A program made the translations under genes and the position numbers. This document shows, piece after piece, positions 35,589 to 63,345 of a stretch of DNA of 64,000 bases (position 1 is the stretch's first letter; each line of letters begins with the position of its first letter). The stretch is from positions 186,001 through 250,000 of the forward strand of contig JAWMAR010001141.1 of NCBI GenBank assembly GCA_036785375.1, read 5' to 3'. This stretch comes from Leucoraja ocellata. Taxonomy: Eukaryota. The notes beneath the pieces were generated by a model. That model saw nothing but the letters and a program-made list of their open reading frames with translations, did not search any database and had not been told where the DNA came from.

Positions 35589-35624
35589 CTACGGCAAGCT
35601 GTGAGGTTTTGGTTCAATGGGTCC
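35589..35624 (-). CDS. Gene B exon 6: short cytoplasmic tail (GPIEPKPHSLP*)
   Basis: poly-T gcag| phase-0 acceptor matching the TM exon donor; candidate AATAAA on the minus strand near 35210. Confidence 0.65.
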   Translation of the reverse strand, partial: GPIEPKPHSLP

Positions 35625-38600
35625 CTGCAAAAAAAAACCTAGAAGTCATCAGATTAATTGACTCCGGGAATTGTGCTGTATTTCACAAGGCCACTAACAA
35701 CAGAATTCTGCTTCCAATTGGCACAGTGATGCAGCTGATAGAGCTGCTGCCTCATAGCGTCCAAGAATTTGCTTGGATTTTGACTTTGATGCTATCTGTG
35801 TGGCGTTTACATGTTCTCGCTGTGGCCATGTGGGTTTCCTCCGCGAGCTCCGGTTTCCTCCCACCTCCCAAAGACTTGTGGGTTTACAGGTTAATTGGCC
35901 AATGTGAATTTCCCCTAGTGTGTTGGGAGTTGGGATGAGAGAATGGGATAACATCGAACTCATCCGTACGGCCTATATTTGTGAAGTACTTTAAACGCTT
36001 TTCGTTTGTTTTATTTTATCAGCATGTTTGAAGGTATTAATGGACAGCATTTGGAAGCATTCAGCGATTCTGATGATCTCCGCAAAACATACCTTCCTTA
36101 TACTTGTGAACAATGAGACTGAGATGCTGCAGATCCCAAGCAGAGCGAAGTACAGCCAGCGTCCCACATTCCATATCATGTAACTGAGCAAAGGGGGAAA
36201 GATACAGAATCAGTGGGAGGAAACAGACTTGTTCGTGTTGGAAACATTCATAGCCTGATTGCTGTGAAATCTCTGCATGGAGCAGGGTACAGCAACAGAG
36301 CCCAGGTAGTTCACCTGGGAAATTCCACCGTCCAGGATCTCGACCCGAAACTGCACCTATCCATGTTCTTCAGAGATGCTGCCTGACTCGCTGAGTTACT
36401 CCAGCATTTTGTGTCTAGCGTTGATAAAGTTAGTTAAAAAAAGATGGGAGAAGTGACGAGTGGTATGTAAACACCAGCATGGGATCAGTTCAGTTGATCT
36501 TTTCTGTGCCTTAAATCCTATGTGATCAGATGTCATTCTGCGTAACCCTGGAACGTCATCACATTGAGGGTATTGTGTGCATTTCTGGTCGCCATGTTAC
36601 AGGAAAGATTTTGTCAAGCTGGAAAGGGTGCAGAGAAGATTAACGAGGATGTTGCCGGGACTCGAGGGACTGATGTATAGGGAAAGGTTGAGCAAGCTGG
36701 GTGATTATTTCTTGGAGAGCAGGAGGACGAGGGGTGATCTTATGGAGGTGTATCATCAAGAGATGAATCAAAAATTACTCTCTCATCTTTTTTTTGTTAC
36801 ATTGACACATTTGATAGAGCTGCTCTCTTAAAGCGCTAGACACCTGGGTTCGATCCTGAACTCAGGATGTTATCTGCGTGGATTTCTACATTCTCCCTAT
36901 GACCGCGTGGTTCTCCTGCAGGTGCTCTGGTTTGCTCCCACATCCTAAAGGCATGCGGGTTTGGAGGTTAATTGGCATTGTAAAATCGCCCTTAATGTGT
37001 AGGAAGTGAACAATAAGGTGGTACAACACAGAACTAATGTTAACGGGGGGATGGAAGATCGACACAAAAAGCTGGAGTAACTCAGCGGGTCAGACAGCAC
37101 CTCTGGAGAGAAGGAATAGATGATGTTTTTCATGTTGAGTCACTTCTTCAGACTAATCTATGGATGTCATGGACTCATAGGGTGGAAGGGCCTGTTTCCG
37201 TGCTGTTTCTTTAAAACTAAAAACCAAAAAAAAAGCTAGAGTCCATTTGGCCCATTGAGTGTATGCTGGATCTTAGATCATTCTCGTACTCCGATCTCAA
37301 CATTTGAATCGATTGAAGTCAATACTCTGATGCACATAACTAGCAAATGAAAGAGGAAATTATCTTCCAATTAAATATCATAAGGAAGCAGAGCCAATCA
37401 CAACAGCAGTAATAACATAATTGTACCATTCAGTGCAGGTGGATCGGGTGGAGTCATTTTGACTCTCATTGGATCTTTTTACTGTACTTGCAAAAGGTGT
37501 AGTCATCATTCGTTCAGTCACTTTATGTTCTGTTGGGTCAAGGAAATACAATTCAGCATCACCTGCTTTTCACTTGCAATCTTAAGTTCATAAGGCATAG
37601 GAGCAGAATTAGGCCATTTGGCACATCAAGTTCATCAGTTCATGTTCATAAGCGATAGGAGCAGAATTAGGTCATTCGGCCCATCAAGTCTACTCCATCA
37701 TTCAATCATGGCTGATCTATCTCTCACTCCTAACCCTATTCTCATGCCTTCTCCCCATAACCCCTGATACCCGTACTATCTCCGCCTTAAAATATCCATT
37801 GACTTGGCCTCCACAATATTCTGTGGCAATAAATTCCACAGATTTACTACCGTCTTGCTTAAGAATTCCTTCCTAAAGAAACACTCTTTAATTCTGAGGC
37901 TATGACCTCTGGCCCTAGATTATCTCACTAGTGGAAACATCTTCTCCACATCCACTCTATCCAGGCCTTTCATTATTCAGTAAGTTTCAAAAAGGGCCTC
38001 CCTCACCCTTTCAAACCCCAGCGAGTACAGGCCCAGTGCTGTCAAACACTCATCATATATTAACCCACTCATTCCTGGGATCGTTCTTGTAAACCTCCTC
38101 TGGACCCTCTCCAGAACAAGCACATTCTTCCTCAGATATGGGACTGACCAAACAGTCTGCTCCACCATTCAATCACGGCAGATCTATCCATCCCTCTCTA
38201 CCCCATATGCAGGGGGAGGATGTGCTGGCCGTAGCAGTGCGCATGTGCGAGGCGGCCGGCCGTGCCGGCGGACGAGGAGCCCGGCGGCCCAGACACGGAT
38301 GGCGGGCGGAGACGGAGAGTAACAGAGAGAGAGAGATAATGAGGGGACTCACTCAGAGTTAAACGGCAGGTGTCCTGGGTGCTTGCCATGCCGGGCAAAA
38401 TGACACAACTTTTAGGTTGCCCGGCAGGACGTTAGATGGCCATTGGCACCTGGGCAACCGTAAATTTCGAGCCCTGCTTTGGCCGAGGCCCCTAGATTTC
38501 GGGGCCCTGGGCAGGGTAACGTTTCGTACTTACGATTGTTACCGAAATGCACCATATAACTGCAATTCTCTCCGGTGTTGGACACTGCCACAGTGACCAT

Positions 38601-41600
38601 TTCACTGAACTCTGTCCCGCGATTATTTGAGGCTTTGCAGTAATATTGATGGCTTTGTTGTTTGAAGTATTGACAACGTAGATCCAGGTTGTTGTTATTT
38701 GAGATCTTTAAGGTATTTTCATACCAGGTGTAGCTAATGGGAAGAGATCCCCGCTCAGACCTACAGGACACTGTCACTGAGCCTCTGACACCTGGGACAT
38801 TGGCTGGTGATAGTAATCCAAGCACAGGAACAGACACAGGTTCTGTGGGAAAGGAGCAAATAATGGATACAAAGTCAACACTTGAATATAAACGACTCTC
38901 CCATTCTGGCACTCTTGTACCTCGACTTGTGAAGAGGTACACGCGAACCTCGTCTCCTGCCTTCGGTGCTCGCAATATGACCTCGACCTTGACATCGGCC
39001 AGCCCAAACGGAGGCTTGGAGACCGGTTCGCTGAACACTTGCCGCCCCGTTTATCTCCACGCGGTCAATTCCATCCCTCCATCCCTCCCTCAATCCTGCT
39101 TCACATTTCACTGTTCCTCCTCTCCTTATCTGGTCTCCTCCTCACTTATATCACTCCACCCGTCTGTNNNNNNNNNNNNNNNNNNNNNNNNNNNNNNNNN
39201 NNNNNNNNNNNNNNNNNNNNNNNNNNNNNNNNNNNNNNNNNNNNNNNNNNNNNNNNNNNNNNNNNNNNNNNNNNNNNNNNNNNNNNNNNNNNNNNNNNNN
39301 NNNNNNNNNNNNNNNNNNNNNNNNNNNNNNNNNNNNNNNNNNNNNNNNNNNNNNNNNNNNNNNNNNNNNNNNNNNNNNNNNNNNNNNNNNNNNNNCCGTT
39401 CCCATCTCTCAATTCCAGTTTTCTCCTCCCTCATTCCGTCTGTCTGAAGGAGGGTCACGACTCTAGTGTTCAAGAAGGAACTGCAGATGCTGGAAGATCG
39501 AAGGTACACAAAAATGCTGGAGAAACTCAGCGGGTGCAGCAGCATCTATGGAGCGAAGGAAATAGGCGACGTTTCGGGCCGAAACCCTTCTTCAGACTCG
39601 AGTTGGTTTTGTCCATTGCCTCCACAGATGCTACCTGACCCACTAAGTTCTTCCAGCACATGGTTTTGTTCACGTGTCGTACACCTGTCCAATGTTCGGT
39701 GGCTATACAGAGAGGCTATAGTTGTGCTTGGATTAAGTGACCTGCAACAGGAAGGGAACCCACTGATGCTGATATCGGGGTGGAGACAGCGAGAGATATT
39801 GTCAGTCTGAGAATCCCAGAAACTCGGGGAAGCTGGAGGTCGCCGGGAGTTTCCTGAAAGGTCTGATTAGGATTGCTTTACTCAAATTTCCACCGAGATT
39901 GGGCCGGGTGGAGAGGCTGGCTGGCTGCCGGGCGGTGGGTGGTCAGTGGTGAGTGGCTGCTGGGGGTGGGGGCGCATTGACGGGACAGAGGGAGATAGAG
40001 GGAGAGAGACCGCTGGGTGGGGAGAGGGTGTTTGGTCCCTGAGGTGGGGGCGGGGTGCGGGCTGGCCTGCCCCGGGAGTATTGAATGCAGTCTGTTGAAC
40101 TCACGGGACTGATTCCCTGTTTATGATTCTCCAGGTATTCAGACCAGACCACTTGTTTCTACCTGATCTGTCGGATTATTAGTTTGAGTGGGAATGCAAA
40201 CCTCTGACAGGGTGACATTTCATACAGTTCAGAGGCAGGGAAATGTGCTGAGCATCCCACTTGACGTGAGTGGCCGCTCAGTGGGACAGAGCCCGCACTG
40301 GGTGAGAGCAACATGAGTGGGGTTTCCCGACCCCCGCCCGCTCCCCGCAGGTCTCTGCACTGCTGCGGAGCCTCGGGATATCGGTGCAGCCCTGACCCTT
40401 CCCGGAGAAAACGTGGATCAGGCATTTCAGTGGAGACGTCAAGTCAATCGCTGCGAAACGTACCGGCAGATACTTGGAGATGTACGCGAAACATTGGATC
40501 AGCGCCAGATGCAGTAATTCCACAGCTGTACCATCCAGTTTCTCCAGAGCGAAGATCCTCCACAGTCACGGTAAATATTCCTCGTGCCGGGTTATCGGTG
40601 ATTGACGATCTTCCATTCCGTCCGTGTTGCCCATTTGTTTCCAATAACACTCTACACTGGCGGGTCCACCCTTGACACCAGTATTTTGTGTGCGAGCGGT
40701 ACTTTGCTTCATAGTGACAATCGATTGTGATCGCTCTTCCCACAACTCCTCTTACATGTTTCTCCCCCCACACCGCACCTGAAACTGAGAGGTCAAATCT
40801 TCTGAAAATGAACAGGAAAAATCAGCTGAATATTCGGAATGATGAGGGGTGTGTTGGACAACATTCACCCCCGCACCAACACTGGACCAGATCATCCATC
40901 ACTGAATGGACTTGCCCTCGTTTCAATTGGAAACGTCTCTGCCATCTCCAACCTAGTGGTAGGAAACAACATCTCATATTTCCCGTCGGCAAATTACAAT
41001 CCAATTGTATGAATATTGATATATCTAACTTCAAGTAAACCTTATATCCCCCCCCTCTGTCCATCCCTCCCCCACTCAAGTTGCACCAGCTTCTTGTTGA
41101 ATCTCATTGTCTGTAACTAGTTCTCACTCACCGCACAGCAATGGCCTGTTTCCTTTACCATTGTTACTTGTTTACATATCTTTCATTCATTTGTTCTATA
41201 TCTCTCTACACAACCGTCTATACCTCTTCCATTTCCCCTGACTCTGTAGAAGAGTCTAGATCTCGAAACAGCACCTATCCCTTAGTTCCATAGATGCTGC
41301 TGACCAGCTGAGTTACTCCAGTATATTGTGTCTATCTTCCAAACCAACATTGTCTCTGCCCCCTCAGCATTGCCGGCGTTTCTTTCGCTCGTCACGCTGC
41401 TGGGAGCGGCATCTCCCGGCCTTAGTGTCGGCTGGTGACTTCCCAGAAGATCCAGCAGTTGTGAATGGAAGGAGACCACGGAGTACAATATTCGGCAAAT
41501 TACCTCACTATAGCTACCAACTAAATGGCTCGCTTTAATGACCGAGTGAGAAAATACGTCCAAGTAACTATATGGGATTCTGGATAGTGATCCCCTCTAA

Positions 41601-42915
41601 CTCACAATCAGTTTCACAACAGCATCAGGGTTAAGGTTGGGTCTTGCTGAAACATAGAAACATAGAAACATAGAAATTAGGTGCAGGAGTAGGCCATTCG
41701 GCCCTTCGAGCCTGCACCGCCATTCAATATGATCATGGCTGATCATCCAACTCAATATCCCGTACCTGCCTTCTCTCCATACCCCCTGATCCCTTTAGCC
41801 ACAGGGGCCACATCTAACTCCCTCTTAAATATAGCCAATGAACTGGCCTCAACTACCCTCTGTGGTAGAGAGTTCCAGAGATTCACCACTCTCTGTGTGA
41901 AAAAAGTTCTTCTCATCTCGGTTTTAAAGGATTTCCCCTTTATCCTTAAGCTGTGACCCCTTGTCCTGGACTTCCCTAACATCGGGAACAATCTTCCTGC
42001 ATCTAGCCTGTCCAACCCCTTAAGAATTTTGTAAGTTTCTATAAGATCCCCTCTCAATCTTCTAAATTCTAGAGAGTATAAACCAAGTCTATCCAGTCTT
42101 TCTTCATAAGACAGTCCTGACATCCCAGGAATCAGTCTGGTGAATTAGACAAAAGCACAACAGAGGCAAAACAAAATGAGAAGTAAATGATTACTCATTG
42201 CGGGAGCGCTGTTGACCAACACTCTACCCAGGAGGATTAGTGAACTAACAAAATAAACGGCTAAATTTTAAACAAAATTGTCAATTTGAGAATTTGAAGC
42301 GTAACTAGACCAAGTGGAGACCCGTTGTGCATGTACCCCCAGCGTGCGGTTGCGAGGAGAGGGGGGGGGGAGTGGCATGCGGCGTCACACACATTAACCA
42401 CCCCCACACACACACTAACTACCCCCTCGCACACACGCTAACTAACCCCCCCTTGTCAATATATTAATATTATGCATTTGCTCCTTTTACCCCATAACCG
42501 CCCTATCTACTGACGCATAGCCCCCAACTCACAGGCGCGTCTAGAGAGGAAGGGGGGGGGGGGGGGGGTTAGAGAGTGAGGGCAGAGAGAGAAGGGGGGA
42601 AGAGGGAGGGAGGGGGAGAGGCAGGGAAGGAGGGGGGTACAGGGAAGGGGGAAGGGAGAAGAGGGGGGGGGAGGACGGGGTGAGGGGTGGAGATGTGGGA
42701 AGAGAGAGAGAGGTGGGGGAGAGAAGGAGAGAGAGGTGGGGAAGAGAGAGCGAGAGAGAGAGAGGTGGGGGAGGGTGGGGAGAGAGATTTATTCAAAATA
42801 TGGGGAACCAAGGAATGGATTTCTGAACTCCTAAGATAAATCGCTACGGAAATTGTAAAAATCTCCGCTTTTTTGTGTCAGGTTTTTGAGGAGATACGTT
42901 TCAAAAGCAAAATGC

Positions 42916-42960
<45 letters not shown>

Positions 42961-45900
42961 AAAAGTATATAGATATATAGATAGATAGTTGGATAGATAG
43001 ATAGATAGATAGATGGATAGATGGATAGATGGATAGATGGATAGATAGATAGATAGATAGATATTCATATATAAATATACACCGTTCTGTTTTCTCGTTT
43101 ATAACATTGTTTACAGAGTACTATGTTTACATATTCTGTTGTGCTGCTGCTAGTAAGGATTTCATTGTTCTAACTGGGACGTGAGTGAACAAAACACTCT
43201 TGACTCTTGACTTACTCCGCTAATGTGTGGGATAGAACTAGTGTACAGGTGATCGGTGGTCGGCGTGGACTCGGTGGGCCGAAGGGCCTGTTTCCACGCT
43301 GTATCTTTAAATTAAACTAAAAACACTCAAACCAGAGGGAGGGTAAAGAAGGGTCTCTACCCGAAACGTCACCCAATTTCTTCTATCCAGAGTTGCTGGC
43401 TGCTCCATGGAGTAACCCCGCACAATTAAAGCATGGAATAGTCTTCACCCTACCATAGTTACCCAAACAGACGCAACTAAATTTAAGGTACCTCTTTTTC
43501 CCCCAAGAACCCTTTCATGCTTGCGTCCAAGTCAAGAGTCAAGAGATGTTTAAGAAGGAACTGCAGATGCTGGAAAATCCCAGGTACACAAATGTGCTGG
43601 AGAAACTCAGCGGTTTGCAGCAGCATCTATGGAGCGAAGGAAATAGGCAATGTTTCGGGCCAAAACCCTTCTTCAGACTGGTGGGGGGTTAGGGTTAGGA
43701 GGAGGAGAAGCAGAGGGCTGAGGGAGAGCTGGGAAGGGGAGGAGACAGCAAGGGCTAACAGAATTGTGAGAATTCAATGTTCATGCCACCAGGATGCAGA
43801 CTCCCCAAGCGGAATATGAGGTGCTGTTCCTCCAATTTCTGGTGGTGCTCACTCTGGCCATGGATGAGACCCAGGACAAAGAGGTCGGATACGGAATGGG
43901 AGGGGGAGTTGAAGTGCTGAGCCACCGGGAGGTCAGGTTGGTTAATGCAGACCGAGCGGAGGTGTTTGGCGAAACGATCGCCAAGCCTACGCTTGGTCTC
44001 ACCGATGTAGATCAGCTGACATCTAGAGCAGCGGATGCAATAGATGCAGGTGAACCTCTGTCGCACCTGGAACGACTGCGTGGCTCCTTGAATGGAGTCA
44101 AGGGGGGAGGTAAAGCGACAAGTGTAGCATCTCTTGCGGTTGCATGGGAAAGTGCCTGGGGAGGGGGTGGTGCAGGAGGGAAGGGAAGAATGAACAAGCG
44201 AGTTACGGAGGGAATGGGCTCAGCACTTCAACTCCCCCTCCCATTCCGTATCTGACTTCTCTGTCCTGGGCCTCCTCCATTGCATGAACATTGAATTCTC
44301 ACAATTCCGTTAGCCCTTGCTGTCTCCTCCCCTTCCCAGTTCTCCCTCAGCCCTCGGGCTCCACCTCCTTTTTCCTTTCTTCTCCCTGCCCCCCCACCCA
44401 CCCCCCCATTAGTCTGAAGAAGGGTTTTGGCCTGAAACGTTGCCTATTTCCTTCGCTCCATAGATGCTGCTGCACCTGCTGAGTTTCTCCAGCATTTGTG
44501 TGTACTAGAGTCAAGAGAGTTTTATTGTCATCTGTCCCAGATAGGACAATTAAATTCTTGCTTGCTGCAGCACAAGAGAATATGTAAACATAATACAGAA
44601 CAGGAGATAAAAGTTCAGTGTCCTTATATACCATAGACCATATATATATACACAATACAATACAATAGGCTGTTATTGTTCAGCCCTCCACCATCTCCAG
44701 TTTAAATTCCATTTAGAATATTTATGGAGGACCAGGAAACCAGAAGCAAGAGTTACTCCAGGGTGTTACTCCAGATCCAGGGTCAGGGAGTGATTCTGCG
44801 TTGGTTTTCAGCGACCGGACAGCAATGGCGGCCAGATCTGTTTGCTCCCCATACCCCACGATTCCATTAGCCCTAAGAGCTGTATCTAACTCTCTCTTGA
44901 ACTCTCTCTTGAATTGGCCTCCACTGCCCTCTGTGGCAGAGAATTCTACAGATTCACAACTCTGGGTGAAAAGGGTTTTCCTCATCTGGCCTACCCCTTA
45001 TTCAGGTCTCAACCCAAAACGTCACCTATCCATGTTCTCCAGAGATGCTGCCTGACCTGCTGACTTACTCCAGCACTTTGGTCATTACTAAAGCTGAATA
45101 GCCAGCTGCCTGTGGTACCAGTGGTGACTCAGCAGGTCAGGCAGCATCGGTGGAGAACATGGATAGGTGACGTTTCAAGTCAAGACCATGACATATTGCC
45201 TGACCTACTGAGTTACGGCAGCACTTTGTGCCTCATTGAAATAAACTTCCCGGCCTGTGGTGGAAACTGGATCTGCCACTGATGTTTCAAACTCCACGTC
45301 CACCTGGAATAATCATGAGGTGTCTTTTTCACACAAAGGCTGGTGGGTGTATGGAACAAGCTGCCAGAGGAGGTAGTTGAGGCAGGGACTATCCCATAAT
45401 CTAAGAAGCAGTTAGACAGGTACATGGATAGGACAGGTTTGAAGGTACATGGACCAAACGTGGACAGGTGGGACTAGTGTTGCTGAGACATGTTGGCCGG
45501 TGTGGGTAAGAAGGGCTGAAGGGCCTGTTTCCAGACTGTATCACTCTATGACTCTAACACATGTGAAACTCTGCAGATTCAGGAGCTGGGGTGGAGACAC
45601 ATCATCACATCAGTCCAGGTCGGCTCACAAGCCACAAGACAAATGCCTTGAAGGAGAACTCAGAGGCTGGGGAAAGCACAGTGTGTAGAACAGCTCGAGC
45701 AGCAGAGTCCGTTGTAAGGCAGCTGGTTTTTCTCAGAAGGGAGAGATTACCACAACTTCTCCAAATGCTAAATTGGACAGTCACTCTGGTGCTTCCTCAT
45801 TTGAGATGCCCGCCTGTTCCCAATGGCTGGCTTTCACAGAATTTTCTTTGAATGTGCTAAGGTTTAGGTTCAACATTTCCCATTGCAGTGCGTGGAGGGA

Positions 45901-46422
45901 GTGCCGTGTGTCTTTGATCGACTAAATGCTGCAGTAACGCAGCGGGTCAGGCGGCATCTCTGGCGAGAAGGGGGAGGTGATGGAGGGAAAGCAAAGGCTA
46001 CTTGAAGTACACATTGGATACATTGGTGATGATTTGTGTAGTACCATGTTACAGAGAGAGAGTGTTTACATGACTATATTCCAATACTGGTCATATTATT
46101 ATGTGCTGAACATTTTGCAGCTTTACGTGGCGACACATTTTTAACCATCTGAATGAATGAATGAATGTCTATTGGCCAAGTATTCACATACAAGGAATTG
46201 GCCTTGGTGCTCCGCCCGCAAATGACAAAATGGCATACAGTGACAGATAGGAATGCTACATAAAACATTACACATTAATAACACTGCATCTCTGCAGTGG
46301 CAACAGTGTATAACGTGCAAACTAATACTAATTATCAGAATGTCCAATGCTGAATGTTACTCACCGGGCAAGAAACAAATGAGAAGAATTGGCACCAACA
46401 TCGTTTTAGATGCAGACCCCAT
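35589..46422 (-). CDS. Gene B: MDIR/CD300-like V+C2 receptor, putative activating type, ~305 aa (298 from second ATG). Exons 46365-46422, 40464-40784, 38534-38842, 37427-37529, 36093-36183, 35589-35624
   Basis: Six exons with canonical splice sites and compatible phases (1,1,1,2,0) form a 918-nt open frame: leader, V, C2, S/T stalk, TM YMIWNVGRWLYFALLGICSISVSLF, tail GPIEPKPHSLP*. Confidence 0.87.
36093..36183 (-). CDS. Gene B exon 5: transmembrane with Arg
   Basis: ctttccccctttgctcag| acceptor; YMIWNVGRWLYFALLGICSISVSLFTSIRK; AAG|GTATGT donor. Confidence 0.85.
37427..37529 (-). CDS. Gene B exon 4: Ser/Thr-rich stalk
   Basis: tttccttgacccaacag| acceptor; QHKVTERMMTTPFASTVKRSNESQNDSTRSTCTE; 103 nt, phase 1 to 2, same length as the gene C stalk. 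Confidence 0.78.
38534..38842 (-). CDS. Gene B exon 3: Ig C2-type domain with an extra Cys pair
   Basis: cctttcccacag|AA..EPVSVPVL..VTVSCRSERGSLPISYTWY..YYCKASNNRG..ENCSY; C|GTAAGT donor; 309 nt. Confidence 0.9.
39168..39395. other. Assembly gap (228 N) in gene B intron 2
   Basis: Run of N. Confidence 0.99.
39564..39598 (-). ncRNA. Minimal hammerhead ribozyme motif, sense to gene B pre-mRNA (intron 2)
   Basis: Reverse complement CTGAAGA-A-GGGT-TTCG-GCCC-GAAA-CG-TC; UUCG-capped stem II. Confidence 0.55.
40464..40784 (-). CDS. Gene B exon 2: Ig V domain (CD300/pIgR-like)
   Basis: Matches ORF 40444..40773: ITIDCHY..KYWCQGWTRQC..GRSSITDNPARGIFTVTVEDL..GWYSC; ctcag| acceptor, G|GTACGT donor. 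Confidence 0.93.
41650..42143 (-). mobile_element. Young CR1 LINE 3' fragment
   Basis: ORF 41752..42123; (tttctatg)n tail; near-identical to the copy at 56160-56920. Confidence 0.9.
42301..43062. repeat. Composite repeat with G/A-rich tract, (CA)n and (TAGA/TGGA)n microsatellites; possibly Helitron/Helentron-related
   Basis: Begins aactagacc.., G-run tract 42548-42790, (CA)n 42920-42955, ends aaagtatatagat followed by (taga)n. Class assignment uncertain. Confidence 0.5.
43545..44500 (-). mobile_element. Penelope-like element: GIY-YIG endonuclease fragment with inverted terminal (pLTR-like) sequence
   Basis: ORF 43755..44066: IYCIRC..YIGETKRRLGDRF..H..PVAQHFN..E..I..L..GMN; terminal sequence at ~43550-43760 recurs inverted at ~44285-44500. 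Confidence 0.85.
46365..46422 (-). CDS. Gene B exon 1: signal peptide (MGSASKT-MLVPILLICFLP)
   Basis: Two in-frame ATGs (46422, 46401), hydrophobic core, G|GTGAGT donor; homologous to the gene C leader. Confidence 0.85.
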
Positions 46423-46440
46423 GCTGGGACGTTTATTGTT

Positions 46441-46545
46441 CAGCTCTTAGTCCAGAGAACTAAATAAATGCCCATCGAGAGGAAATGTTACAATATAAAT
46501 GATGAAGAAAGAAACAAGGAACCGGAATGTGAAACAAGAGTGAGC
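46441..46545 (-). promoter_or_regulatory. Gene B proximal promoter/5' UTR, conserved with gene C
   Basis: + strand cagctcttagtcc ... aatgatgaagaaagaaacaaggaaccggaatgtgaaacaagagtgag aligns with the gene C upstream sequence. Confidence 0.55.
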
Positions 46546-50087: not shown

Positions 50088-50383
50088 GCACGGTGGCACA
50101 GCGGTGGAGTTGCTGCCTTACAACATCTACAGCACCAGAGACCCAGGTTTGATCCCGACTACGGGTACAGTCTGTATAGAGTTTGTACGTACTCACCGTG
50201 ACCACATGGGTTTTTTTTAGAGACCTCCGGTTTACTCCTTTCCTCAACGTCATACAGGTGCAGGATAATTGGCTTGGTAAAATTGTAAATTGTCACCAGT
50301 GTGTGTGGGGTAGTGTTAATTGCTGGTGGTGCAGACTCGGTGGGCCGAAGGGCCTGTTTCCACGCTGTATCTCTAAACTAAAC
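50088..50383 (+). mobile_element. HE1/V-SINE-type SINE
   Basis: Same consensus; other + copies at ~1020-1285, 35720-35960, 53990-54320, 58427-58636, 59821-60120. Confidence 0.78.
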
Positions 50384-51864: not shown

Positions 51865-52125
51865 CTAAGAAGTCACAGTGGCATAAATACTCTGCACAGG
51901 AGAAGGAGCTTTCTGACGGGCAAGCTGGCTGACGCTTTGAGATGTAACTTCTGAATAGGTGACATTGTCCTCCCCAGTACTGGAGTGAGACCCTGTCGAT
52001 TTGCTTTGAACTTGCACTTCTGCATACACAGTTTGATATTGATTAGAACAATGGGCAGCTTCCTTGTTGCTTCGAATGTCTGACAGTGTTGCATAAACGA
52101 TGCTCCGTTTTCCTGCTGGCAAACC
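51865..52125 (-). CDS. Gene C exon 6: ITIM/ITSM cytoplasmic exon
   Basis: tcttttgtttttcag|; matches ORF 51865..52122; IVYATL, TVYAEV, VTYSEV, SIYATV then TAG; candidate AATAAA on the minus strand at ~50958-50963. Confidence 0.9.
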   Translation of the reverse strand, partial: GLPAGKRSIVYATLSDIRSNKEAAHCSNQYQTVYAEVQVQSKSTGSHSSTGEDNVTYSEVTSQSVSQLARQKAPSPVQSIYATVTS

Positions 52126-55100
52126 CTGAAAAACAAAAGAGGAACCAAGGTTTGTCTGATGATTTGTGTTCAGTTTTAGTCACCATGTCATAGGAAAGAT
52201 GCTGTCAAGTTGGAAAGGGTGCGGAGAAGATTTGCAAGGATGTTGCCCAGACTCGTGGGCGTGAACTATAGGGAGAGGTTGAGCAGGCCAGGACGCTTGG
52301 AGTGCAGGAGGATGAGGGGTGATCTGATAGAGGTGTACAAAATCATGAGAGGAAAAGATCGGGTAGACGCACAGAGCCTTTTGCCTAGAGTAGAAGAATC
52401 GAGAACCAGATGATATAGGTTTATGATGAGGGGGGGAAAGATTTAATAGGAACCCAAGGGGTAACTTTCTACACAAAGTGTGGTGGGTGTATGGAACGAG
52501 CTGCTGTGTATGTGATCATGGCTGATCATCCAAAATTAGAACCCTGTTCCTTTAAAACAATCGTCTGATCTGTATGCATAAAATAACCTTGATGCATCTT
52601 GATGCGTTTGATGATAAAGGAACCATAGAACCATTGAAGCAGATTAGTGACTTGATTAGTGAGGTTGGATTACAGAATTTTGTAAATTCTCAATCCACGG
52701 AGAATTCATACTTTGCCGTCTTTACCTGCATTTCATTGTTATTTGCTCTGGGAGGTTTGTTCCCTTCTGATTCTGGAAAACACAATGTTAACATTGAAAG
52801 AACATGTCAGGGACATTTTTAACCAGCCATCTTGATGCATATAGAGTAGGGAGGAACTGCAGATGCTGGTTTAAACCGAAGATGGACACACAATGCTGGA
52901 GTAACTTAGTGGGACAGGCAGCATCTCCGGAGAGAAGAAATGGATGGCGTTTCAGGTTGAGACCCTTCTTCAGACCGTTCTCTCCAGAGATGCCTATCCT
53001 GCTGATTTACTCCAGCATCTTCAATCTGTCTTATGTGTATAACCAGCATTTGCAGTTCCTTCCTACACTTTTATTCATGAGAACCACGGGGGCACCACAA
53101 GCCCAACTAGGTGGGTTACCTCTGGGTGCTCCGTTTCCCCCTACATCCTAAAGACATGCACGCCTGTAGGTTAATTCCCACTGTAAATTGTCCCTAGTGT
53201 GTAGGCGAGGGGTAGAATCTTGGGGAAATTGATAACAACATGGAGAGAACAAAGTTGAATAAAATTAGTGTGTAGAAAGGACCTGCAGATTAATGAATTA
53301 ATGAATAAGTTTATTTGCCAAGTATTCACATACAAGGAATTTGCCTTGGTGCTCCGCCCCCGCAAGTGACAACGACAAACAGTGACAGTTAGGAATGACT
53401 GTTAAGAATGCTAGTTTACACCCAAGATAGATACAAAGTAGTAACTCAATTGATCAGGCAGCATCTCTGGACGAAAAGTGTGGGTGACATTTCAGGCCGG
53501 GAACCTTCTTCAGACTGGATAAGATTATTGTAGGACTGGAATAAAGAGATGTTTGATAAAGGGCCTGTTTCAGTGCTGTATCTCTCTCCCTCTCTGCAGG
53601 AAATGATCACATACATCATGAAAGGATGAAGGAAACATAGAAACTCACTCCTTTGTCTACACATTAGGCACCAAAGTAGACCAGCAAATATCACCACGAG
53701 AAGAACTCCAGCAATACTGAGGTAAATTATGGGTCTATGGGACAGAGAAAGCAAAAAGGTTACTCTTGTTTCATCATTGATTCCTATCCTTTGGTAAAGA
53801 ACAAAAGTCTAACATCTGCAGGGTATCTTTCATGAGCTCAGGATAAGTCAAGCCCAGTCAATGGAGTGCACACATTGCTGTAATGTGGTAAACACCAAAG
53901 CCAATCTGCCCACAGCAAGTTCCACAAACAGCAGTGCGATAACGACCAATGATTGTGATGTTGGATAAAGAATAAACCCAACTCAACCCAACAGTAGCGC
54001 AGCATGGAGTTGATGCCTTACAGCGCCAGAGACCCAGGTTCAATCCAGACTACAGGTGCTGTCTGTAAGGAGTTTGCATATTCTCCCTGTGATGAAGTGG
54101 GTTTTCTCCGGGTGCTCCGGTTTCCTCCCACATCACAAAGACGTGCGGGTTTGTGGGTTAATTGGCCTTGGTAAATTGTCCTTAATGTGTAGCGAGTGGA
54201 TGAAAAAGCGGGATCACATAGATCTAATATAAAAGGGTGATCGACGGACAGCGTGGACTCGGAGGAACGAAGGATTTCTTACCATGCTGTATCTCTAAAC
54301 TAAAGTAAAACTAAACTAATTGTGTGTGAGATCTGGGCAGTGGCATTGTCCGTGGTCGATATATCTGCCGATTGGTTTACAAATGCTCACAGCTTACAGA
54401 TTTACAAAGGAAACACCCCTTGTTCAAAACCAGTGGACAGTCAATAAGTGTAGGGAGGAACTGCAGATGCTGGTTTAAACCGAAGAAGATAGACACAAAA
54501 TGCTGGAGTAACTCAGCGGGAGAGGCAGCATCTCTGGAGAGAAGGAATGGATGACATTTGGGATTGAGACCCTTCTTCAGGGGAGAAGGAGATACAGAGA
54601 TAAGGAAGTGTAAGGTGTGAAAACGAAACAAAGGGGGTGGAGATCAAGGAAAATGTAGAATAGATCATTGTTAGCTGGGAGACGGTAACAACAAAGTAAA
54701 CAAAGATAAAATATAATTGGGCAGAGTCAGACTGGTCGGAGTACTGGAAAGGGAATGGGATGGAGTCAGGGAAAGCAAGGGATACTTATAGTTGGAGAAG
54801 TCAATATTCATACAGCTGGGGTGGAAGCTGCCCAATAGGAGGTGCTGTTACCTCTAATTTTCGCTGATAAAGGAGGAGGCCCAGGACAGAAATGTAAGCA
54901 TGGGAACGGGAGTGGGAGTTAAAGTGTTTACCACCGGACGGTCAGATAGGCTTAAGCGGACTGAGCGAAGGAGATCAGTGAAACGATCGCCAAGCCTGCG
55001 CTTGTTCTTGCCGATATAAAGGAGTCCACACCTGCAACTGTAGATGAGGTTGGAGGAGCTGCAAGTGAACCTCTACCTCACCTGAAAAGACTGTCAGGGT

Positions 55101-58100
55101 CCTTGGACGGATTCGAGGGGCGAGGTATAGGGACAGGTGTTGCATCTCCTGCAGTTGCAGGTGAAAGTACTTGGGGACGGGGTAGTTTGGGTGGTAAGGG
55201 ATGAATTAACCAGGGAGATGTGGAGGGAACGGTCTCTGCAGAAAGCCGAAAGGGGTGGAGATGGGGAGATGTGGCTAGTGGTGGGTGTCAATGTCCTGCC
55301 AAGTTTAACTGTTGTTTCTTTAATTTAGTTTAGTTTATTATAGTCACGTGCATCGAGGTTCAGTGAAAAGCTTTTGGTTGTGTGTTATCCAGTCAGCGAA
55401 AAGACTATACACGATTACAATCAAGCTGTCACAGCATATAGATTTGTGATTAAAGGGTAGAATGTTTAGTGTAAGATAGAGTCCAATAAAGTCTGATTAA
55501 AGATAGTTGGAAGGTCTCCAATGAGGTAGATGGGAGGTCAGGGTCGCTCTCTAGCTGGTGAGGGGATGGTTCAGTTGCCTGGTAACTGCTGGGAAGAAAA
55601 TGTCCCTGACTCTGCAGGTGTGCGTTTTCAAACCTCCATACATCTTGCCTGATGGGAGAAGAGGGAGTGACCAGGGTGAGTGGTCCTTGATTATGCCTCT
55701 CTGGCATTGTAAGGCAGCAACTCTACCGCTGCACCACCATGCCACCCTCGACAACCTAGAGTTACTCCAGTACTTTGTGTTGTACTCAAGGTTCCAGCAT
55801 CCAGCCAGGTTAATTCCCGGGATGGTGGGACTGTCGTATAATGAAAGAATGGAGCGACTGGGCTTGTATTCACTGGAATTCAGAAGGATGAGAGGGTATC
55901 TTATAGACACATATAAAATTATTTAGGGATTGGACACGCGAGATGCAGGAAACATGTTCCTGATGTTGTGGGAGTCCAGAGCCAGGGGCCACAGTTTAAG
56001 AATAAGGGGTAGGCCATTTAGAACTGAGTTGAGGAAAACCTTTTCACCCAGGGAGTTGTGAATCTGGGAAATTCTTTACCACATAAGGCAGTGCAGGCCG
56101 ATTCACTGGATACATTCAAAAGAGAATTAGATAGATTTCTTAGGGCTAGCGGAATCATAAAAACATAGAAACATAGAAAATAGGTGCAGGAGTATGCCAT
56201 TCGGCCCTTCGAGCCTGCACCGCCATTCAATATGATCATGGCTGATCATCCAACTCAGTATCCCGTACCTGCCTTCTCTCCATACCCTCTGATCCCCTTA
56301 GCCACAAGGGCCACATCTAACTCCCTCTTAAATATAGCCAATGAACTGGCCTCGACTACCCTCTGTGGCAGAGAGTTCCAGAGATTCACCACTTTCTGTG
56401 TGAAAAAAGGTCTTCTCATCTCAGTTTTAAAGGATTTCCCCCTTATCCTTAAGCTGTGACCCCTTGTCCTGGACTTCCCCAACATCGGGAACAATCTTCC
56501 TGCATCTAGCCTGTCCAACCCCTTAAGAATTTTGTAAGTTTCTATAAGATCCCCTCTCAGTCTCCTAAATTCTAGAGAGTATAAACCAAGTCTATCCAGT
56601 CTTTCTTCATAAGACGGTCCTGACATCCCAGGAATCAGTCTGGTGAACCGTCTCTGCACTCCCTCTATGGCAAGAATGTCCTTCCTCAGATTTGGAGACC
56701 AAAACTGTACGCAATACTCCAGGTGTGGTCTCACCAAGACCCTGTACAACTGCAGTAGAACCTCCCTGCTCCTATACTCAAATCCTTTTGCTATGAAAGC
56801 TAACATACCATTCGCTTTCTTCACTGCCTGCTGCACCTGCATGCCTACTTTCAATGACTGGTGTACCATGACACCCAGGTCTCGCTGCATCTCCCCTTTT
56901 CCTAGACGGCCACCATTTAGAGAATCAAGGGATATGGGGACAAGGCAGGAACGGGGGTACTGATTGTGGATGATCAACCATGATCACATTGAATGGCGGC
57001 GCTGGCTTGAAGGACTGATTGGACCTCTCCTGCACCAATTGTCTATCTATGTATCTATGTATGGATCAACAGTTTATTGTGTCTCTTGCTCTCACATTGA
57101 GAAGCAAGGCCAATCAAAACTTGAGCAAGTGAAAATTATACCCGGGCGCAGCGGTGGCGGGTAGAATATTTCCGGATGTTACTTTTGTAGTTGAAGTAAA
57201 CGCTACTGTTGTTGTTGTTGACGATCCAGGATTAGGTTCAGGTTCTGTTGAGAAAAGGAAATAAAAGACAATTAAAGATAGACAAAATATGCTGGAGTAA
57301 CTCAGCGGGACAGGCAGCATCTCTGGAGAGAGGGAATGGGTGAAGTTTCGGGTCTGAGGATGGGTCTCGGGCCGAAACGTCACCCATTCCTTCCCTCCAG
57401 AGACGCTGCCTGTCCCGCTGACATACTCCAACATTTCAAGTTCGTTCACATATTGTCACGTGCACCAATTAAGGTACAGTGGTATTTGAGTTATCATACA
57501 GCCATACAAGTTAAAACAGATAACGCAATACACAATAGTTTTAACATAAACATCCACCACAGTGGAATCATCATTCCTCACTGTGATGGAAGGCAACAAG
57601 GTTCAGTCATCTTCCTCCTTTGTTTACCCGTGGTGGTCGGGGCCTTGAACCCTCAGCACTGCCACTGCCGACGGCCCGTTCAAGCCCTCTCGTCGGGATG
57701 ATGGAGACCCCGGCGTCGGGGCGGAACGGAAACACTCCGCGGCTTCACGGTATTAAAGTCCACAAGCCCCGCGGTCGGAGAGCTTCCACAGCGATCCTCA
57801 GCAAAGGATCACAACTCTGCAATGTTAAAGTCCGCGTCGCCACTTGCGGCTTGAAGCTCCAGCCCGGTCTCCAGGAAAGGCCGCATCCATCCAGTGGTTA
57901 GTCCGCGGGGAGGGGACGGAGACGTGACACGGGGAAAGATCACATCTCTGTTGCGGTAAGTGACTGAAAACGGTTTCGCCCTCCCCTCACCCCCCTCCCC
58001 TCCCCCTCACCCCCCCCCTCCCCTCACCCCCCTCCCATCACCCCCCTCCCATCACCCCCCTCCCATCACCCCCCTCACCCCCCTCCCCTCCCCTCCCCCC

Positions 58101-61100
58101 ACATTAAAAACACAGAAACATTAAAACATACATTTTAGACAGACTGAAAATAACAAAAAAGTCGAAATAACACACAGGCTGCTGGCGAGGCTGCCATCTC
58201 GGCGCCACCCAGTGACGCATCTATCTGCTCTATAGATTGTGTGTCAATGTTCGATTAAAACAGCATCTGCAGTTCTTTCCAACACAATAAAAGACATTTC
58301 CCTGTTTGCCGTTTCATCATTATTCAAGATCCAGGGGCATCATCTGCACACTCCCAGGAGGGGTAAGAACAGAATTCGGCCAAAGCGCAAAGATCCCGGC
58401 ACTGATCCCTATGGTGCATCATTAAGGGCGGCACGGTGGCGCAGCTGTAGAATTGCTGCCTTACAGCGCCAGGGACCCGGGTTCGATCATGACCACGGGT
58501 ACTTGTCTGTCTGTCTGTCTGGAGTTTGTACATTCTCCCCCTGACCTGCGTGAGTTTTCTCTGAAAACTTCGGTTTCCCCCCACACTCCAAACACGTACA
58601 GGTTTACAGGTTAATTGGCTTGGTATAAATGTAAAACGTACCGTCAGATACTTGGAGCTGAACGTTAAACAATGGATCCAAGCCAGATGCATCAATTCCA
58701 CAGCTGTACCATCCTGTATCGCTAGAGTGAAAATCCTCCACAGTCACAGTAAATTTTCCTTGTGCCGGGTTATCTGTGATTGACGCTCTTCCACGTCTGT
58801 GTTGCCCATTTGTTTTCACTACAACTGAACACGAGCGAGTCCACCCATGACACCAGTATTTTGTGTGTGAACGGTACCGTGCTACATAGTAACAATCGAT
58901 TGTGATATTTTTTCCCACAACTCCTCTTACAGGTGTATTTGCCGTCAGAGCACCTGAAACTGAGAAGAAAAATCATCAGAACATGTACAGGACAAATCTA
59001 CTTAACACAGCGTTTGCTGTCCCACCCACTCTTCCCCTAATCAACGATGGGCCGAATGGTCCAACCCGTGTGTGGACATTCACTTACCCTTGAGCCAAGC
59101 ACAAAGTGCCCGTGTAACTCAGCAGATCTGGCAGCATCTGTGGAGGGAATGGACACGTGACGTGTCGGGTTTGGACCCTGCTTCAGACTGATTAAAGTAG
59201 GGCGGGGAAAGCTGGAAGAGAGGTGGAGATGGGATAAAGCCTGGCAAGTGACAGGTGGAAGGTAGACACAAATTGCTGGAGTAACTCAGCGGAACAGGCA
59301 GCACAACAAGTGGATACAGATGAGGGGGGAATTTTGACTGGTTCACGAGTGGACAAAGACTGGAGGTGAAAAGCGGTCAAAAGGTTGTCAGATGAGGAGA
59401 GATGAGAAGCAAAATGTAAAGACAGAGGGAGGGGTATATTTGGCAGTGGACAGGGTAGAAAAGGAAGAAGAGGCATGGGTTAAATGGTGCACAGGAAAGT
59501 GAGAGAAGGTAGGGGGGTGTGCAACGTAAAATTGGAGAATTTAATGATCATAAGATATTTTTCTATTGATTGAATTGATTGAAAAATACAGCATGGAAAG
59601 ATGCCCTTTGGCCCATCGAGTCCTCTTCACACTAAAGATAGACACAAGGTGCTGGAGTAACTCAGCGGGACAGGCAGCATGTCTGGAGAAATAGAATGCG
59701 TGATGTTTCGGGATTGGGACCCTTCTTCAGACACCCTTCTAAGTTACTCCAGCACTTTGTTTCTATCTTTGGTACAAAGCAGCACCTGCAGTTCTTTGGT
59801 CCTAACTGTTGACACTAGTTGGGCAGCACAGTAGCACAGCAGAAGAGTGGCTGCCTTACAGCGCCAAGGACCCGGGTTTGATCCTGACTATGGATGCTGC
59901 CTGTACAGAATTTGTACGTTCTCCCTGTGACCGCATGGGTTTCCTCTGTGTGCTCTAGTTTTCTCCCACAATCCAAACAGGAGTAGGTTTGTAAGTTAAT
60001 TGACTTCTGTAAATTACCCCAAGGGTGTAGGATAGAACTGGTGCACGGGTAATCGTTGGTCGGCTTGGACATTGTGGGCCGAAGGGCCTGTTCAAGGCTG
60101 TATCTCTAAAACTAACTAATTGTCATATTGCATTTAATGAGCTGTGAGAATATTCTCCAAGGTCCTTCTGTTCCTCCACACTCCCTCAACATCCATATAT
60201 TAATGTCTTTATTTAGACCTCTTTGTCAAATGTAATTCCTCTCACTTCTCTGGATTAAACTGTCTTTGTCACTTTTCTGCCCTACTGATTTGTCCATCCA
60301 TATACGCCCTGGGGTCAAAAGCCTTCTCCTCCCTGTCAACCATCCAGCTGACCTTTGTCTCATCTGCAGAGGACTTCACCACGCCCCCTACATTTATCTA
60401 CATAGATGATTCTTGCTATTGAGGGAGTGCAGCGTAGGTTTACAAGGTTAATTCCCAGGATGGCGGAACTGTCATATGCTGAGAGAATGGAGCAGCTAAG
60501 CTTGTATCTGGAATTTAGGATGAGAGGGAATCTTATTGAAACATGTAAGATTATTAAGGGTTTGGACACGCTAGAGGCAAGAAACATGTTCCCAATGTTG
60601 GGGGAGTCCAGAACCAGGGACAACAGTTTAAGAATAAGGGGTAAAGCATTTAGAACGGAGATGAGGAAACACAGAGAGTTGTCAGTATGTGGAATTCTCT
60701 GCCCACTCTCCGGAAACTTTCAAGAGAGAGCTAGATAGGGCTCTTAAAGATAGTAGTCAGGGGATTTGGGGAGAAGGCAGGAATGGGGTACTGATTGGGG
60801 ATGATCAAGCATGATCACATTCAATAAACAATGGACAATAGACAATAGGTGCAGGAGTAGGCCAATTGGCCCTTCGAGCCAGCACCGTCATTCAATGTGA
60901 TCATGGCTGATCATCTCCGTTCTAAATGGCTTACTCATTGTTCTTCAACTGTGGCTCCTGGTTCTGGACTCCCCCAACATCGGAAACATGTTTCCTGCAT
61001 CTAGCATGTCCAAACCCTTAATAATCTTAAAATAATTTTACAATAATCTTACAATAATCTTACATGGCAGTGCTGGCTCAAAGGGCCGAATGGCCTACTC

Positions 61101-63345
61101 CTGTACCTATTGTCTATTGATGAGTACTGAGGCTTGTGGATCCCTACAACAACCTTATCCCCCAAATGCACTTATATCGTTGACCTGTTTTATGGAGGGT
61201 AAACCCTATTTGCCATCTTTCCCATTTATAAACTAGGAAATAGTCACCTACACTTCACGCTGCCTTGCAAGGCCACCAGCATAATCATGGAACAGTTTCA
61301 TCCCAGTCACTCCTTCTTTACCTGTCTACCATTAAGCACGAGGAACAGAAGTTTGAACCCAATGCTCTAGATTCAGAGATAGTTTTCTTCCCAACTGTCT
61401 TCAGGCAACTGACCCATCCTCTCACTAGCTAGAGCGCAGTCCTGGCCTCCTATTTACCCCCGTGAACAATCAATAATTGGACTTTATTAGACTAAACTAA
61501 ACTAAACTAGTAAAGCAATGATACTAGATTACCGGAAATGATCTGGTGAATGAAGACAGTCAATATTGGCCTTCACCTGCATCTGAGCATCAGTGATAAC
61601 ATTGCAAAAAATAATTTACTTGGTAACAATAAATTATTAATATTGCATGCTGATGACTTTGACAAATATGCATAGTTGACGTCCAAGAACAAGAAGGAAA
61701 TGGCTACATTGCACGAGCAACCCACAGCCCAAGAGGAACTGGACGTCAAACAACATCTGAACTTTAAATAAGAGGAAGTGTTGTAAAATGGAGACAATTG
61801 TTTTGGCATTATTGCTTGGCTGCTGTTAGTGAGTGCAAGCAAGCAATAAAACAATGTTTCATGAATAGAAAGGGTCCCTTTGCACTTTGACACTGTTACT
61901 TTAGTTTAGTTTAGTTTAAGATGGAGCATGGAAACTGGCCCTTCGGCCCAACTTGTCCGTGTTGACCTAGTATCTTGTACACTAGGGACAATTTACATAG
62001 TCCATATTCCCTATTTATAGAGGCCAATTAACCTACAAATCTGTGCGTCTTTGGGATGTGGGAGGAAACCAGAGGACTGGTAAAAAAACCCATGCGGTCA
62101 CAGGGAGAAGGTACTAATTCCATATAGACAGACCCCTTAGTCAGGATCGAACCCAGATCTCTGATACTGTAAGGCACCGCTGTGCCACTGTCCCAGTCAC
62201 TTGTAATTGTCTCTGTTTTTCATTCACAGTTGCTTTGTGCTGTCAGATACATTGGCGGCCATGATTTATGTGTGGCACAGTGATGGAGACAGGAGGAGAT
62301 TGGAAGACCACACTCTAATATTGAGACAAAAGAGATTGCAGATGCTGGAATCTGGAACAACAAACAGCACACTGGAAGGACTCAGTGGGTCATGGAGGTT
62401 TGAAGGCAAAAAAGTGTAAGTTGTTCTTTCAGATCGAGACCCTGCATCAGGACTGAGAAGGGACAGAGATGTTTGGCAACATATAGATGTACTAATGGGT
62501 GGGAGGGTTGGGGCTGGTTGAGGAAGATGGAACTGGATGAAGAGGATATGTTTGATAGAGAATACACAAGCAGAACATGAGATGTTGATTGATAGTTCAA
62601 AACTCAATGGTATAAACATTACATTTTCCAATTTTGGGTAATTCACACCCTCTGGTGTTTTCCTCCCACACAAGCCCACCTGCCGATCCTGATTCAACCT
62701 TTCCTGCCTCCCTTGCTCAGTCCCGACACAGGTTCCTCTTCACGTACACAGATGCTGGCTGACCCTCTGAGTTCCTCTTTCTTGATCCACGCCCCAATAT
62801 TGTTCAGTTATCTTTACATCTGCAAGCATTTAACTATCTCCACTGCAGAAATGGTACACAAGACCCAGTTACATTCTGATCACCAAAATGAATATCAAAA
62901 TAAAACTACGGAGGTTAACAAAATCTAACACGAAAACAAAAAAATAATCAGGTGGTCAGGGCGCATCTGTGGGGAGAGATAGAGTTAGGTTTTAGGTCGA
63001 AGGATCTCTGATCTGAAAGGGTAACTCTTTTTCTCGGCACACCTGCTAAGTATTTCCAGCATATGTAAAGGAAGGAACTGCAGATGCTGGTTTACACCGA
63101 AGATAGACACAAAATGCTGGAGTAACTCAGAGGGACAGGCAGCATCTCTGGATAGAAGGTATGGGTGACATTTCGGGTCAAGACTTTTCTTCAGGCTGTC
63201 CCGCTGAGTTACTCCAGCACGTTGTGACTATCTCATACTTCCCGTAGAGTCTGGTCACATGACCGTCCAAATCAAGCTGTTACTTACCGGGCAGGGAATA
63301 CATGAGTAGCATTGGAATCCACATAGTTTTATCCAAGGAGACCAT
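51865..63345 (-). CDS. Gene C: CD300a/CD300lf-like (MDIR-type) inhibitory receptor, ~290 aa. Exons 63288-63345, 58642-58959, 57142-57244, 53649-53734, 52726-52772, 51865-52125
   Basis: Six exons, phases 1,1,2,1,0, open 873-nt frame: leader, V, Thr-rich stalk, neutral TM IIYLSIAGVLLVVIFAGLLWCLMC, tail with IVYATL, TVYAEV, VTYSEV, SIYATV. Confidence 0.9.
52726..52772 (-). CDS. Gene C exon 5: cytoplasmic spacer (KSEGNKPPRANNNEMQ)
   Basis: tgtgttttccag| acceptor, CAG|GTAAAG donor; converts phase 1 to 0 as required. Confidence 0.72.
53649..53734 (-). CDS. Gene C exon 4: uncharged transmembrane
   Basis: tctgtcccatag|; PIIYLSIAGVLLVVIFAGLLWCLMCRQR; A|GTGAGT. Confidence 0.87.
54448..55290 (-). mobile_element. 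Older Penelope-like element fragment
   Basis: ORF 55094..55291 (CRDRSL..CNCRRCNTCPY), degenerate GIY-YIG region and pLTR-like sequence. Confidence 0.7.
56160..56920 (-). mobile_element. Young CR1 LINE 3' fragment
   Basis: ORF 56255..56977: YRVLVRPHLEYCVQFWSP..LEFRRLRGDLIETYK..TRGH. Confidence 0.9.
57142..57244 (-). CDS. Gene C exon 3: mucin-like Thr/Ser/Pro stalk
   Basis: ccttttctcaacag|; EPEPNPGSSTTTTVAFTSTTKVTSGNILPATAAPG; GG|GTATAA; 103 nt. Confidence 0.82.
57980..58100. repeat. C-rich tandem repeat (ccccctcccatca)n, G-quadruplex-prone on the minus (transcribed) strand
   Basis: Direct reading. Confidence 0.8.
58642..58959 (-). CDS. Gene C exon 2: Ig V domain
   Basis: Matches ORF 58604..58918: ITIDCYY..KYWCHGWTRSC..DTGWYSC; ttcttctcag| acceptor, G|GTACGT donor. 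Confidence 0.93.
60405..61120. mobile_element. CR1 fragments in both orientations
   Basis: ORF 60406..60738 (VQRRFTRLIP..ESRTR) plus an inverted internal copy at ~60830-61030. Confidence 0.75.
63288..63345 (-). CDS. Gene C exon 1: signal peptide (MVSLDKT-MWIPMLLMYSLP)
   Basis: In-frame ATGs at 63345 and 63324; G|GTAAGT donor. Confidence 0.85.

Follow-up and report, generated by a model that had tools for sequence, protein, structure and literature searches.

Do two neighbouring receptor genes, one apparently activating and the other apparently inhibitory, form a pair that reads a single ligand, or does each have its counterpart elsewhere in the genome? The question arises from a 64,000-nt stretch of the Leucoraja ocellata genome (assembly GCA_036785375.1, contig JAWMAR010001141.1, positions 186,001 to 250,000 of the forward strand), here called the window, which holds genes B and C. 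In the preliminary description, these were taken for a paired set with a shared ligand-binding V domain and opposite signalling modules, and skate MDIRs were cited as one of several analogous systems. MDIRs (modular domain immune-type receptors) of the clearnose skate were reportedly described by Cannon et al. in 2006, and their on/off logic is said to have been known since then. We consider it probable, on sequence grounds, that genes B and C are themselves intact MDIR members, B likely activating and C likely inhibitory, and that each finds the counterpart of its V domain on an opposite-type gene at another place in the cluster.

Gene B reads through leader, V-set, C2-type Ig, stalk, transmembrane (TM), and terminal tail exons (Table 1) into a product of 298 aa with the C2 domain included; the introns are GT-AG, the phases fit, and the one stop is terminal. 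The Arg-bearing TM and the 11-aa, Tyr-free tail exon first attributed to this gene were borne out by the exon reading, with the Arg lying near the outer end of the TM and 20 uncharged residues following it. This TM is 62% identical to that of MDIR5 over 26 aa and identical to the TMs of models P0088 and P0106. The C2 exon matches Pfam Ig_2 at E=7e-6 and 26.7 bits (cut-off 27) and is 73% identical to the C2 domain of MDIR2 and 90% identical to those of P0088 and P0077. Among the joins listed for gene B in 4 of 24 runs, a 340-nt contig from a run that we guessed to be RNA sets a piece of the V exon (40489-40687) next to a piece of the C2 exon (38730-38843). At about 95% identity, this contig may represent a V-to-C2 splice of the gene B type, possibly from a paralogue. 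Read mapping to gene B, which covered 4 of the 24 listed runs, was dominated by intronic repeats, with an exon depth of about 0-3 in the raw-read run, and no RNA dataset was listed as carrying gene B. Use of a donor at 38725 would shorten the C2 exon to 116 nt; this form was ruled out because it gives phase 0. Beyond the tail exon lies a decayed, repeat-interrupted stalk exon of the B type, a relic of an earlier duplication.

Gene C encodes a product of 283 aa with a single terminal stop, GT-AG introns, and matching phases; its junctions are predicted from splice signals and reading frame, from conservation among paralogues, and from annotated model P0010. The neutral TM and four tyrosine motifs described for it were found as such: the TM is uncharged, and the tail carries IVYATL, VTYSEV, and SIYATV, which from their consensus patterns we take to be ITIM-type, and TVYAEV, which we take to be ITSM-type. 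A micro-exon between stalk and TM, hinted at by P0106 and P0010, was ruled out, as its residues are the 3' end of a 106-nt stalk exon. When proteins of near length were searched with the gene C V domain, both of the two candidates matched; both were annotated models, and no transcript fragment was among them. Structure prediction for this V domain was poor (pLDDT 65 alone and 60 with a 33-row alignment), and a fold search returned no match at E<=0.001.

Table 1. Features of the window and of related loci (window positions unless a contig is given; C1141 is the contig that carries the window)
Feature	Position	Strand	Length (nt)	Remarks
Gene A	4696-9916	-		Single-V, CD300-like
Gene A TM exon	near 4807-4696	-		Arg in I-L-R-W motif; small-exon boundaries approximate
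Gene A V exon	7659-7327	-		37-39% to B and C
LINE-like frames	19609-23382	-
LINE-like frames	27366-32114	+
Decayed B-type stalk exon and acceptor flank	34400-34720	-		z=14 to those of gene B
Gene B terminal tail exon	35589..35624	-		11 codons and stop, no Tyr
Gene B TM exon	36093..36183	-	91	Arg in W-x-x-x-R-W motif; MDIR5-type TM
Gene B stalk exon	37427..37529	-	103	Ser/Thr-rich; 97% to annotated model P0088
Gene B C2-type Ig exon	38534..38842	-	309	AG/GTAAGT ends, phase 1-1, open frame
Gene B V-set exon	40464..40784	-	321	MDIR/CD300/pIgR-D1 type, extra Cys pair; Pfam V-set E=6e-10
Gene B leader exon	46365..46401	-	37	ATG start, GT donor, phase 1; homologous to gene C leader
Gene C terminal cytoplasmic exon	51865..52125	-		3 ITIM-type, 1 ITSM-type; 73% to P0010/P0011, 28% to MDIR2 tail
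Gene C first cytoplasmic exon	52726..52772	-	47	Phase 1 to 0; required for frame; same segment in annotated model P0010
Gene C TM exon	53649..53734	-	86	Uncharged; 59% to MDIR2 TM
Gene C stalk exon	57142..57244	-	103	Ser/Thr-rich
Gene C V-set exon	58642..58959	-	318	Pfam V-set E=7e-11
Gene C leader exon	63288..63324	-	37
D1 V exon	C1141:317062-317379			72 kb from gene C
M2	C70:4.52-4.54 Mb			MDIR2-type ITIM gene
MDIR3/MDIR5-type pair	C70 3907/3925 kb			99.7% first-V nt identity
MDIR3/MDIR5-type pair	C70 4354/4422 kb			99.4% first-V nt identity
Inverted ITIM-exon copies	C70: 4570656, 4590770, 4613757, 4636236; C1141: 361318			Others too
Distant V-exon runs	C70 4.73-4.90 Mb; C1141 99-178 kb			29-41% to gene B
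FcR-gamma-like gene	C201 ~592.4-595.6 kb			TM exon at ~592.4 kb, with Cys and Asp
CD3-zeta-like TM exon	C175 ~2.977 Mb	-		1-nt frameshift

The family to which both genes belong is indicated by their V domains, which are 75, 71, and 70% identical to clearnose-skate MDIR2, MDIR3, and MDIR5 for gene B and 68, 65, and 63% for gene C (the accessions of MDIR2, ABC86796.1, and MDIR5, ABC86800.1, were confirmed). A search among longer proteins with the gene B V domain gave 112 matches from 188 candidates, and the named ones were all from sharks and rays. The closest PDB structures are those of pIgR and of CD300lf (E=8e-23) and CD300a, followed by NKp44 and TREM2. Skate MDIRs have been presented as a multigene family of activating and inhibitory receptors resembling CD300, TREM, and pIgR, according to the accessible text of PMC3031540. 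The corresponding features were found at this locus: a V-set domain of the CD300/pIgR/TREM type in both genes, a modular ectodomain of V and C2 exons (with up to nine Ig exons in neighbouring genes), and a large cluster of genes that includes both charged-TM and ITIM forms. Judged by exon structure and similarity, genes B and C are real, intact members of the skate MDIR family, and the first reading of MDIRs as a mere analogy understated the relationship. The window also contains a gene A, which appears to be a more distant, activating-type neighbour of B and C. Between genes A and B lie a 1257-aa frame resembling LINE ORF2 and two partial frames that are nearly identical to each other, all presumably LINE-derived from their motifs.

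In this genome, at least 119 near-full-length matches to the gene B V domain at 61% identity or more were found among the best 150 of 195 candidates, all on contigs C70 and C1141. Modules were mapped on C70 3.85-4.72 Mb and C1141 250-364 kb, and units with no leader match, no TM call, or a broken or partial first V exon were dropped. The 43 genes kept from the two contigs together comprise 28 with an Arg TM, 14 with an ITIM tail, and 1 unclassified (22, 11, and 1, respectively, within the C70 interval), and genes of the MDIR2, MDIR3, and MDIR5 types neighbour each other in the same cluster. On a tree of the 43 first-V exons, the Arg-TM label changes 11 times, compared with 12.6 times when shuffled, and 107 of 500 shuffles were as low. 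Because the label is unclustered on the V tree, signalling type is not tied to V lineage, and modules have been reshuffled often. Similar mixing is seen in annotated models of other skates: P0088 sets a C-type leader and V on the C2, stalk, TM, and tail of the gene B type, and P0077 sets a B-type V and C2 on an MDIR2 tail. To this extent, the proposal of a cartilaginous-fish system of activating and inhibitory receptors, built by recombining V cassettes with TM and tail modules, holds well. Further opposite-type pairs with near-identical first V exons occur among MDIR3/MDIR5-type genes on C70 (Table 1). Inverted, mostly degenerate copies of the gene C ITIM exon lie in introns of multi-domain MDIR3/5-type genes, and runs of distant V exons, possibly belonging to pIgR-like multi-V genes, flank the cluster on both contigs.

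The partners of gene C and gene B are found outside the window. From the window onward, the gene order on C1141 is B1 (gene B), C1 (gene C), B2, C2, B3, C3, D1, D2, and D3, in which the D genes combine a C-type leader, V, and stalk with the TM and tail types of gene B. The V exons of gene C and D1, located on the same contig, are the same at 317 of 318 nt; the sole difference is synonymous, and the amino acid identity is 100%. The other C/D copies differ from the gene C V by 14-23% in protein sequence. D1 is intact, is in frame through its Arg TM, and has a tail exon. Informative sites among C1, C2, and D1 place C1 with D1 by 19:0 inside the V exon; the flanks place it with C2, by 9:1 on the upstream side and by 7:3 on the downstream side (Fisher test of upstream against V, p=1e-6), the exceptions being one upstream and three downstream sites that put C1 with D1. 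With the V exon following D1 and the flanks following C2, this pattern is a gene-conversion signature confined to the ligand-binding exon, and conversion, in either possible direction, is the likely origin of the gene C/D1 V identity. Gene B matches M2 at 190 of 208 aa (91%) over V and C2, and at 92% over V. As far as their sequences can tell, gene C/D1 and gene B/M2 each combine near-identical ligand-binding domains with opposite signalling modules.

The contigs C1141 and C70 are colinear, with 94-99% identity at the far end of C1141 (first 80 kb) and 96-99% on both sides of the block, and C1141 is most likely the second haplotype of the C70 region. The block holds nine genes on C1141 and three, of the D, C, and B types, on C70. 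The inhibitory gene on C70 has a 5' half that matches D1 (2 substitutions in ~6 kb) and a 3' half like that of C3 (the same 2722-nt stalk-to-TM span) and is likely a D1/C3 hybrid, as would arise from unequal crossover. One alternative keeps the MDIR assignment and attributes the C1/D1 identity, the 9-versus-3 count, and the hybrid to assembly artefacts such as false duplication, collapse, or a phase switch. A 200-N run does lie between C1 and D1, inside the V-stalk intron of B2, where the C2 exon of B2 would be; the 6-kb block common to D1 and the C70 inhibitory gene is bordered by sequence differing at 2-4%; and a CD3-zeta-like exon elsewhere carries a 1-nt frameshift that is likely an indel error. 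Nevertheless, this alternative is unlikely: the C1141 copies diverge from one another by 3-10% in their V exons and by 1-4% in their introns and so are not duplicates of one locus, and C1 and D1 are unlike in both flanks and have only the V tract in common. Were there a phase switch at this 6-kb block, the gene counts would become 4 versus 8, with C1 and D1 still together. Independent sequence points the same way, as P0106 (191 aa, encoded by a 1028-nt contig) is a spliced receptor of the D type with a C-type V on an Arg TM. The evidence leans, if only slightly, toward a polymorphic paired block of the KIR/Siglec style, with nine- and three-gene haplotypes, positive selection on V, C/D1 conversion, and a hybrid allele that joins an activating promoter to an inhibitory tail. 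We propose that, in this cluster, gene conversion and unequal crossover repeatedly re-match V exons between inhibitory and activating genes and also alter the number of genes from one haplotype to another.

Selection on the V exons was assessed by pairwise NG86 pN/pS among recombining, non-independent copies, a measure that points to selection and is not a site test, and gave a mean of 2.79 over eight C/D V exons (pN<=pS in 0.7% of 300 codon bootstraps) and 2.49 over the five C/D V copies of one contig. The five B-type V exons gave 1.32, which falls short of significance (25% of bootstraps <=0). The comparison of gene B with gene C proposed in the preliminary description gave a pairwise pN/pS of 0.97. 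Among four inhibitory copies, V differs by 5.9% versus 0.45% for the ITIM exon and 1.2% for the TM. These figures suggest that the C/D V exons are under positive selection. We propose that V exons diversify under a positive selection that is likely pathogen driven, with TM and tail exons staying almost fixed. Positive selection favours a microbial ligand for the V domains; no MDIR ligand was found in the papers searched. Gene C and D1, with identical V domains and opposite types, offer a clean test pair for ligand discovery.

How the two types would signal is inferred from established ITIM and FcR-gamma biology. Upon ligand binding, the tyrosine motifs of gene C would be phosphorylated and would recruit SHP-1/SHP-2, damping the cell, and the B and D products, themselves free of such motifs, would use the TM Arg to engage the Asp of an FcR-gamma-type adaptor and signal by way of its ITAM. 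A candidate adaptor, represented by two exons, is encoded on another contig (Table 1): in the PDB, its TM exon matches FcR-gamma best (E=4e-12), with CD3-zeta ranking lower, and ~3 kb further on lies a terminal exon with a YxxL motif. A CD3-zeta-like TM exon was also observed (Table 1), and its frameshift is most likely an assembly indel. A 2014 survey had found no FcR-gamma in cartilaginous fish, according to the accessible text of PMC4016189. In searches of a literature that was thin in subscription journals, no paper was found on FCER1G in sharks and nothing relevant on the TM motif.

An alternative view of the Arg-TM genes holds that receptors such as B are non-signalling decoys or adhesion receptors, in which the Arg merely anchors the helix at the membrane surface. 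The placement of the Arg at the outer TM edge and the short, motif-free tail would suit this view; the residue three before the Arg varies across the family, and the describers of MDIRs reportedly did not count MDIR5, of the same TM class as gene B, as activating. However, the outer TM end is also where the Arg usually couples to FcR-gamma in LILRA, GPVI, and NKp46. The Arg-Trp motif persists across sharks and rays in receptors with ITIM-free tails (it occurs in 40 of 112 homologues, sharks included, in a set picked by motif), divergence among the B-type TM copies is just 0.75%, and the genome encodes an FcR-gamma-like adaptor whose TM has an Asp. We therefore judge a decoy or adhesion role improbable and retain an activating role for gene B as the likely one.

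The remaining issue is whether B and C, being neighbours, are also partners. Their V exons differ in 32 of 107 aligned columns (31 substitutions and 1 gap), in agreement with the first count, and are 82.9% identical in nucleotides and ~70% in amino acids. Homology of leaders, promoters, and splice flanks was upheld in large part: by z scores from single-base shuffles, which pyrimidine tracts can inflate, the leader exons (both 37 nt) align at z=11, leader and upstream 300 nt at z=31, the V acceptor flank at 14.5, and the stalk acceptor and donor at 7.0 and 4.1; the V donor flanks (z=-0.5) do not align, and the TM exons are not homologous (z=1.2). The 103-nt stalk size does recur in both genes, but as evidence of homology it is weak, because the bodies of the two exons cannot be aligned (z=0.5) and five of eight C-type stalk copies have a length of 106 nt. 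The ectodomains also differ in build, being V and C2 in gene B, a C2 that the first reading lacked, and V only in gene C.

The claim that the two share a ligand-binding V domain was overstated, as 70% is the background of the cluster. The gene C V ranks 64th among 150 scored matches to the gene B V (of 195 candidates), and the B/C nucleotide identity falls below the median of 85.1%, with 66% of 903 first-V pairs closer. On the 43 first-V tree, B and C belong to two different clades, each with support (99/98 and 100/100), and a forced B+C clade is rejected at p-AU 0.000123. Paired receptors are recognised by V domains closer to each other than to paralogues, and those of B and C are not; by their V sequences, they are not each other's partner, and the paired set first described does not stand. 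Among the regions that differ are the predicted A strand, CDR1, CC'/C', and CDR3 (placed by V-set sequence pattern), so a common ligand is not implied. That B and C are still the functional pair, with one ligand and opposite outputs, is very improbable: although they are adjacent on one strand, form a B-C unit that is seen three times along C1141 (B1-C1, B2-C2, and B3-C3) and once along C70, have homologous promoters and leaders, and represent B-type and C/D-type V clades that are sisters (98/93), their V identity is cluster background, a 30-kb block duplicated in tandem accounts for the repeated unit, and much closer opposite-type partners are present, gene B also having its extra C2.

The family and its on/off logic are already known, and the novelty here is modest, consisting of dynamics like those of CD300A/C and SIGLEC5/14. 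In the literature searched, which was thin in subscription journals, no paper was found on MDIR genomics, pairing, V-limited conversion, or gene-number variation in cartilaginous fish. Compared with the described MDIRs, the likeness lies in the V (B 70-75% and C 63-68%) and C2 (73%) domains, the modular exon build, an MDIR5-like TM in B, and an MDIR2-like TM in C. The differences are that gene C has one V domain and a four-motif tail sharing only 28% identity with that of MDIR2 and that gene B joins an MDIR2-like V and C2 to an Arg TM.

Two mammalian systems offer parallels to the pairing itself. First, primate CD300A and CD300C have ectodomains homogenised by gene conversion and, like the skate genes, join a single CD300-type V-set domain to an inhibitory ITIM partner and an FcR-gamma-coupled activating partner, as described in the accessible text of PMC12447643. 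The CD300C TM residue is Glu, not Arg, and the skate cluster exceeds 30 genes; the skate identity to CD300 is remote, as the CD300lf match indicates, and the likeness is drawn from sequence similarity. Second, in human SIGLEC5/SIGLEC14, conversion is limited to the ligand-binding exons, and a SIGLEC14/5 fusion allele is a deletion haplotype in which the promoter and 5' end of the activating gene drive the inhibitory gene, according to the accessible text of PMC4042635. The D1/C3-like hybrid on C70 would match this fusion, by analogy only, and the SIGLEC5/14 system belongs to another Ig family, couples to DAP12, and has a known sialic-acid ligand. Together, conversion, positive selection, and probable differences in gene number suggest that receptors of cartilaginous fish, too, are shaped by evolutionary behaviour like that of CD300A/C and SIGLEC5/14. 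If this is true, pathogen-driven pairing dynamics would extend to the jawed-vertebrate lineage most distant from mammals and would run there on an FcR-gamma pathway that the accessible text of one survey once reported as missing.
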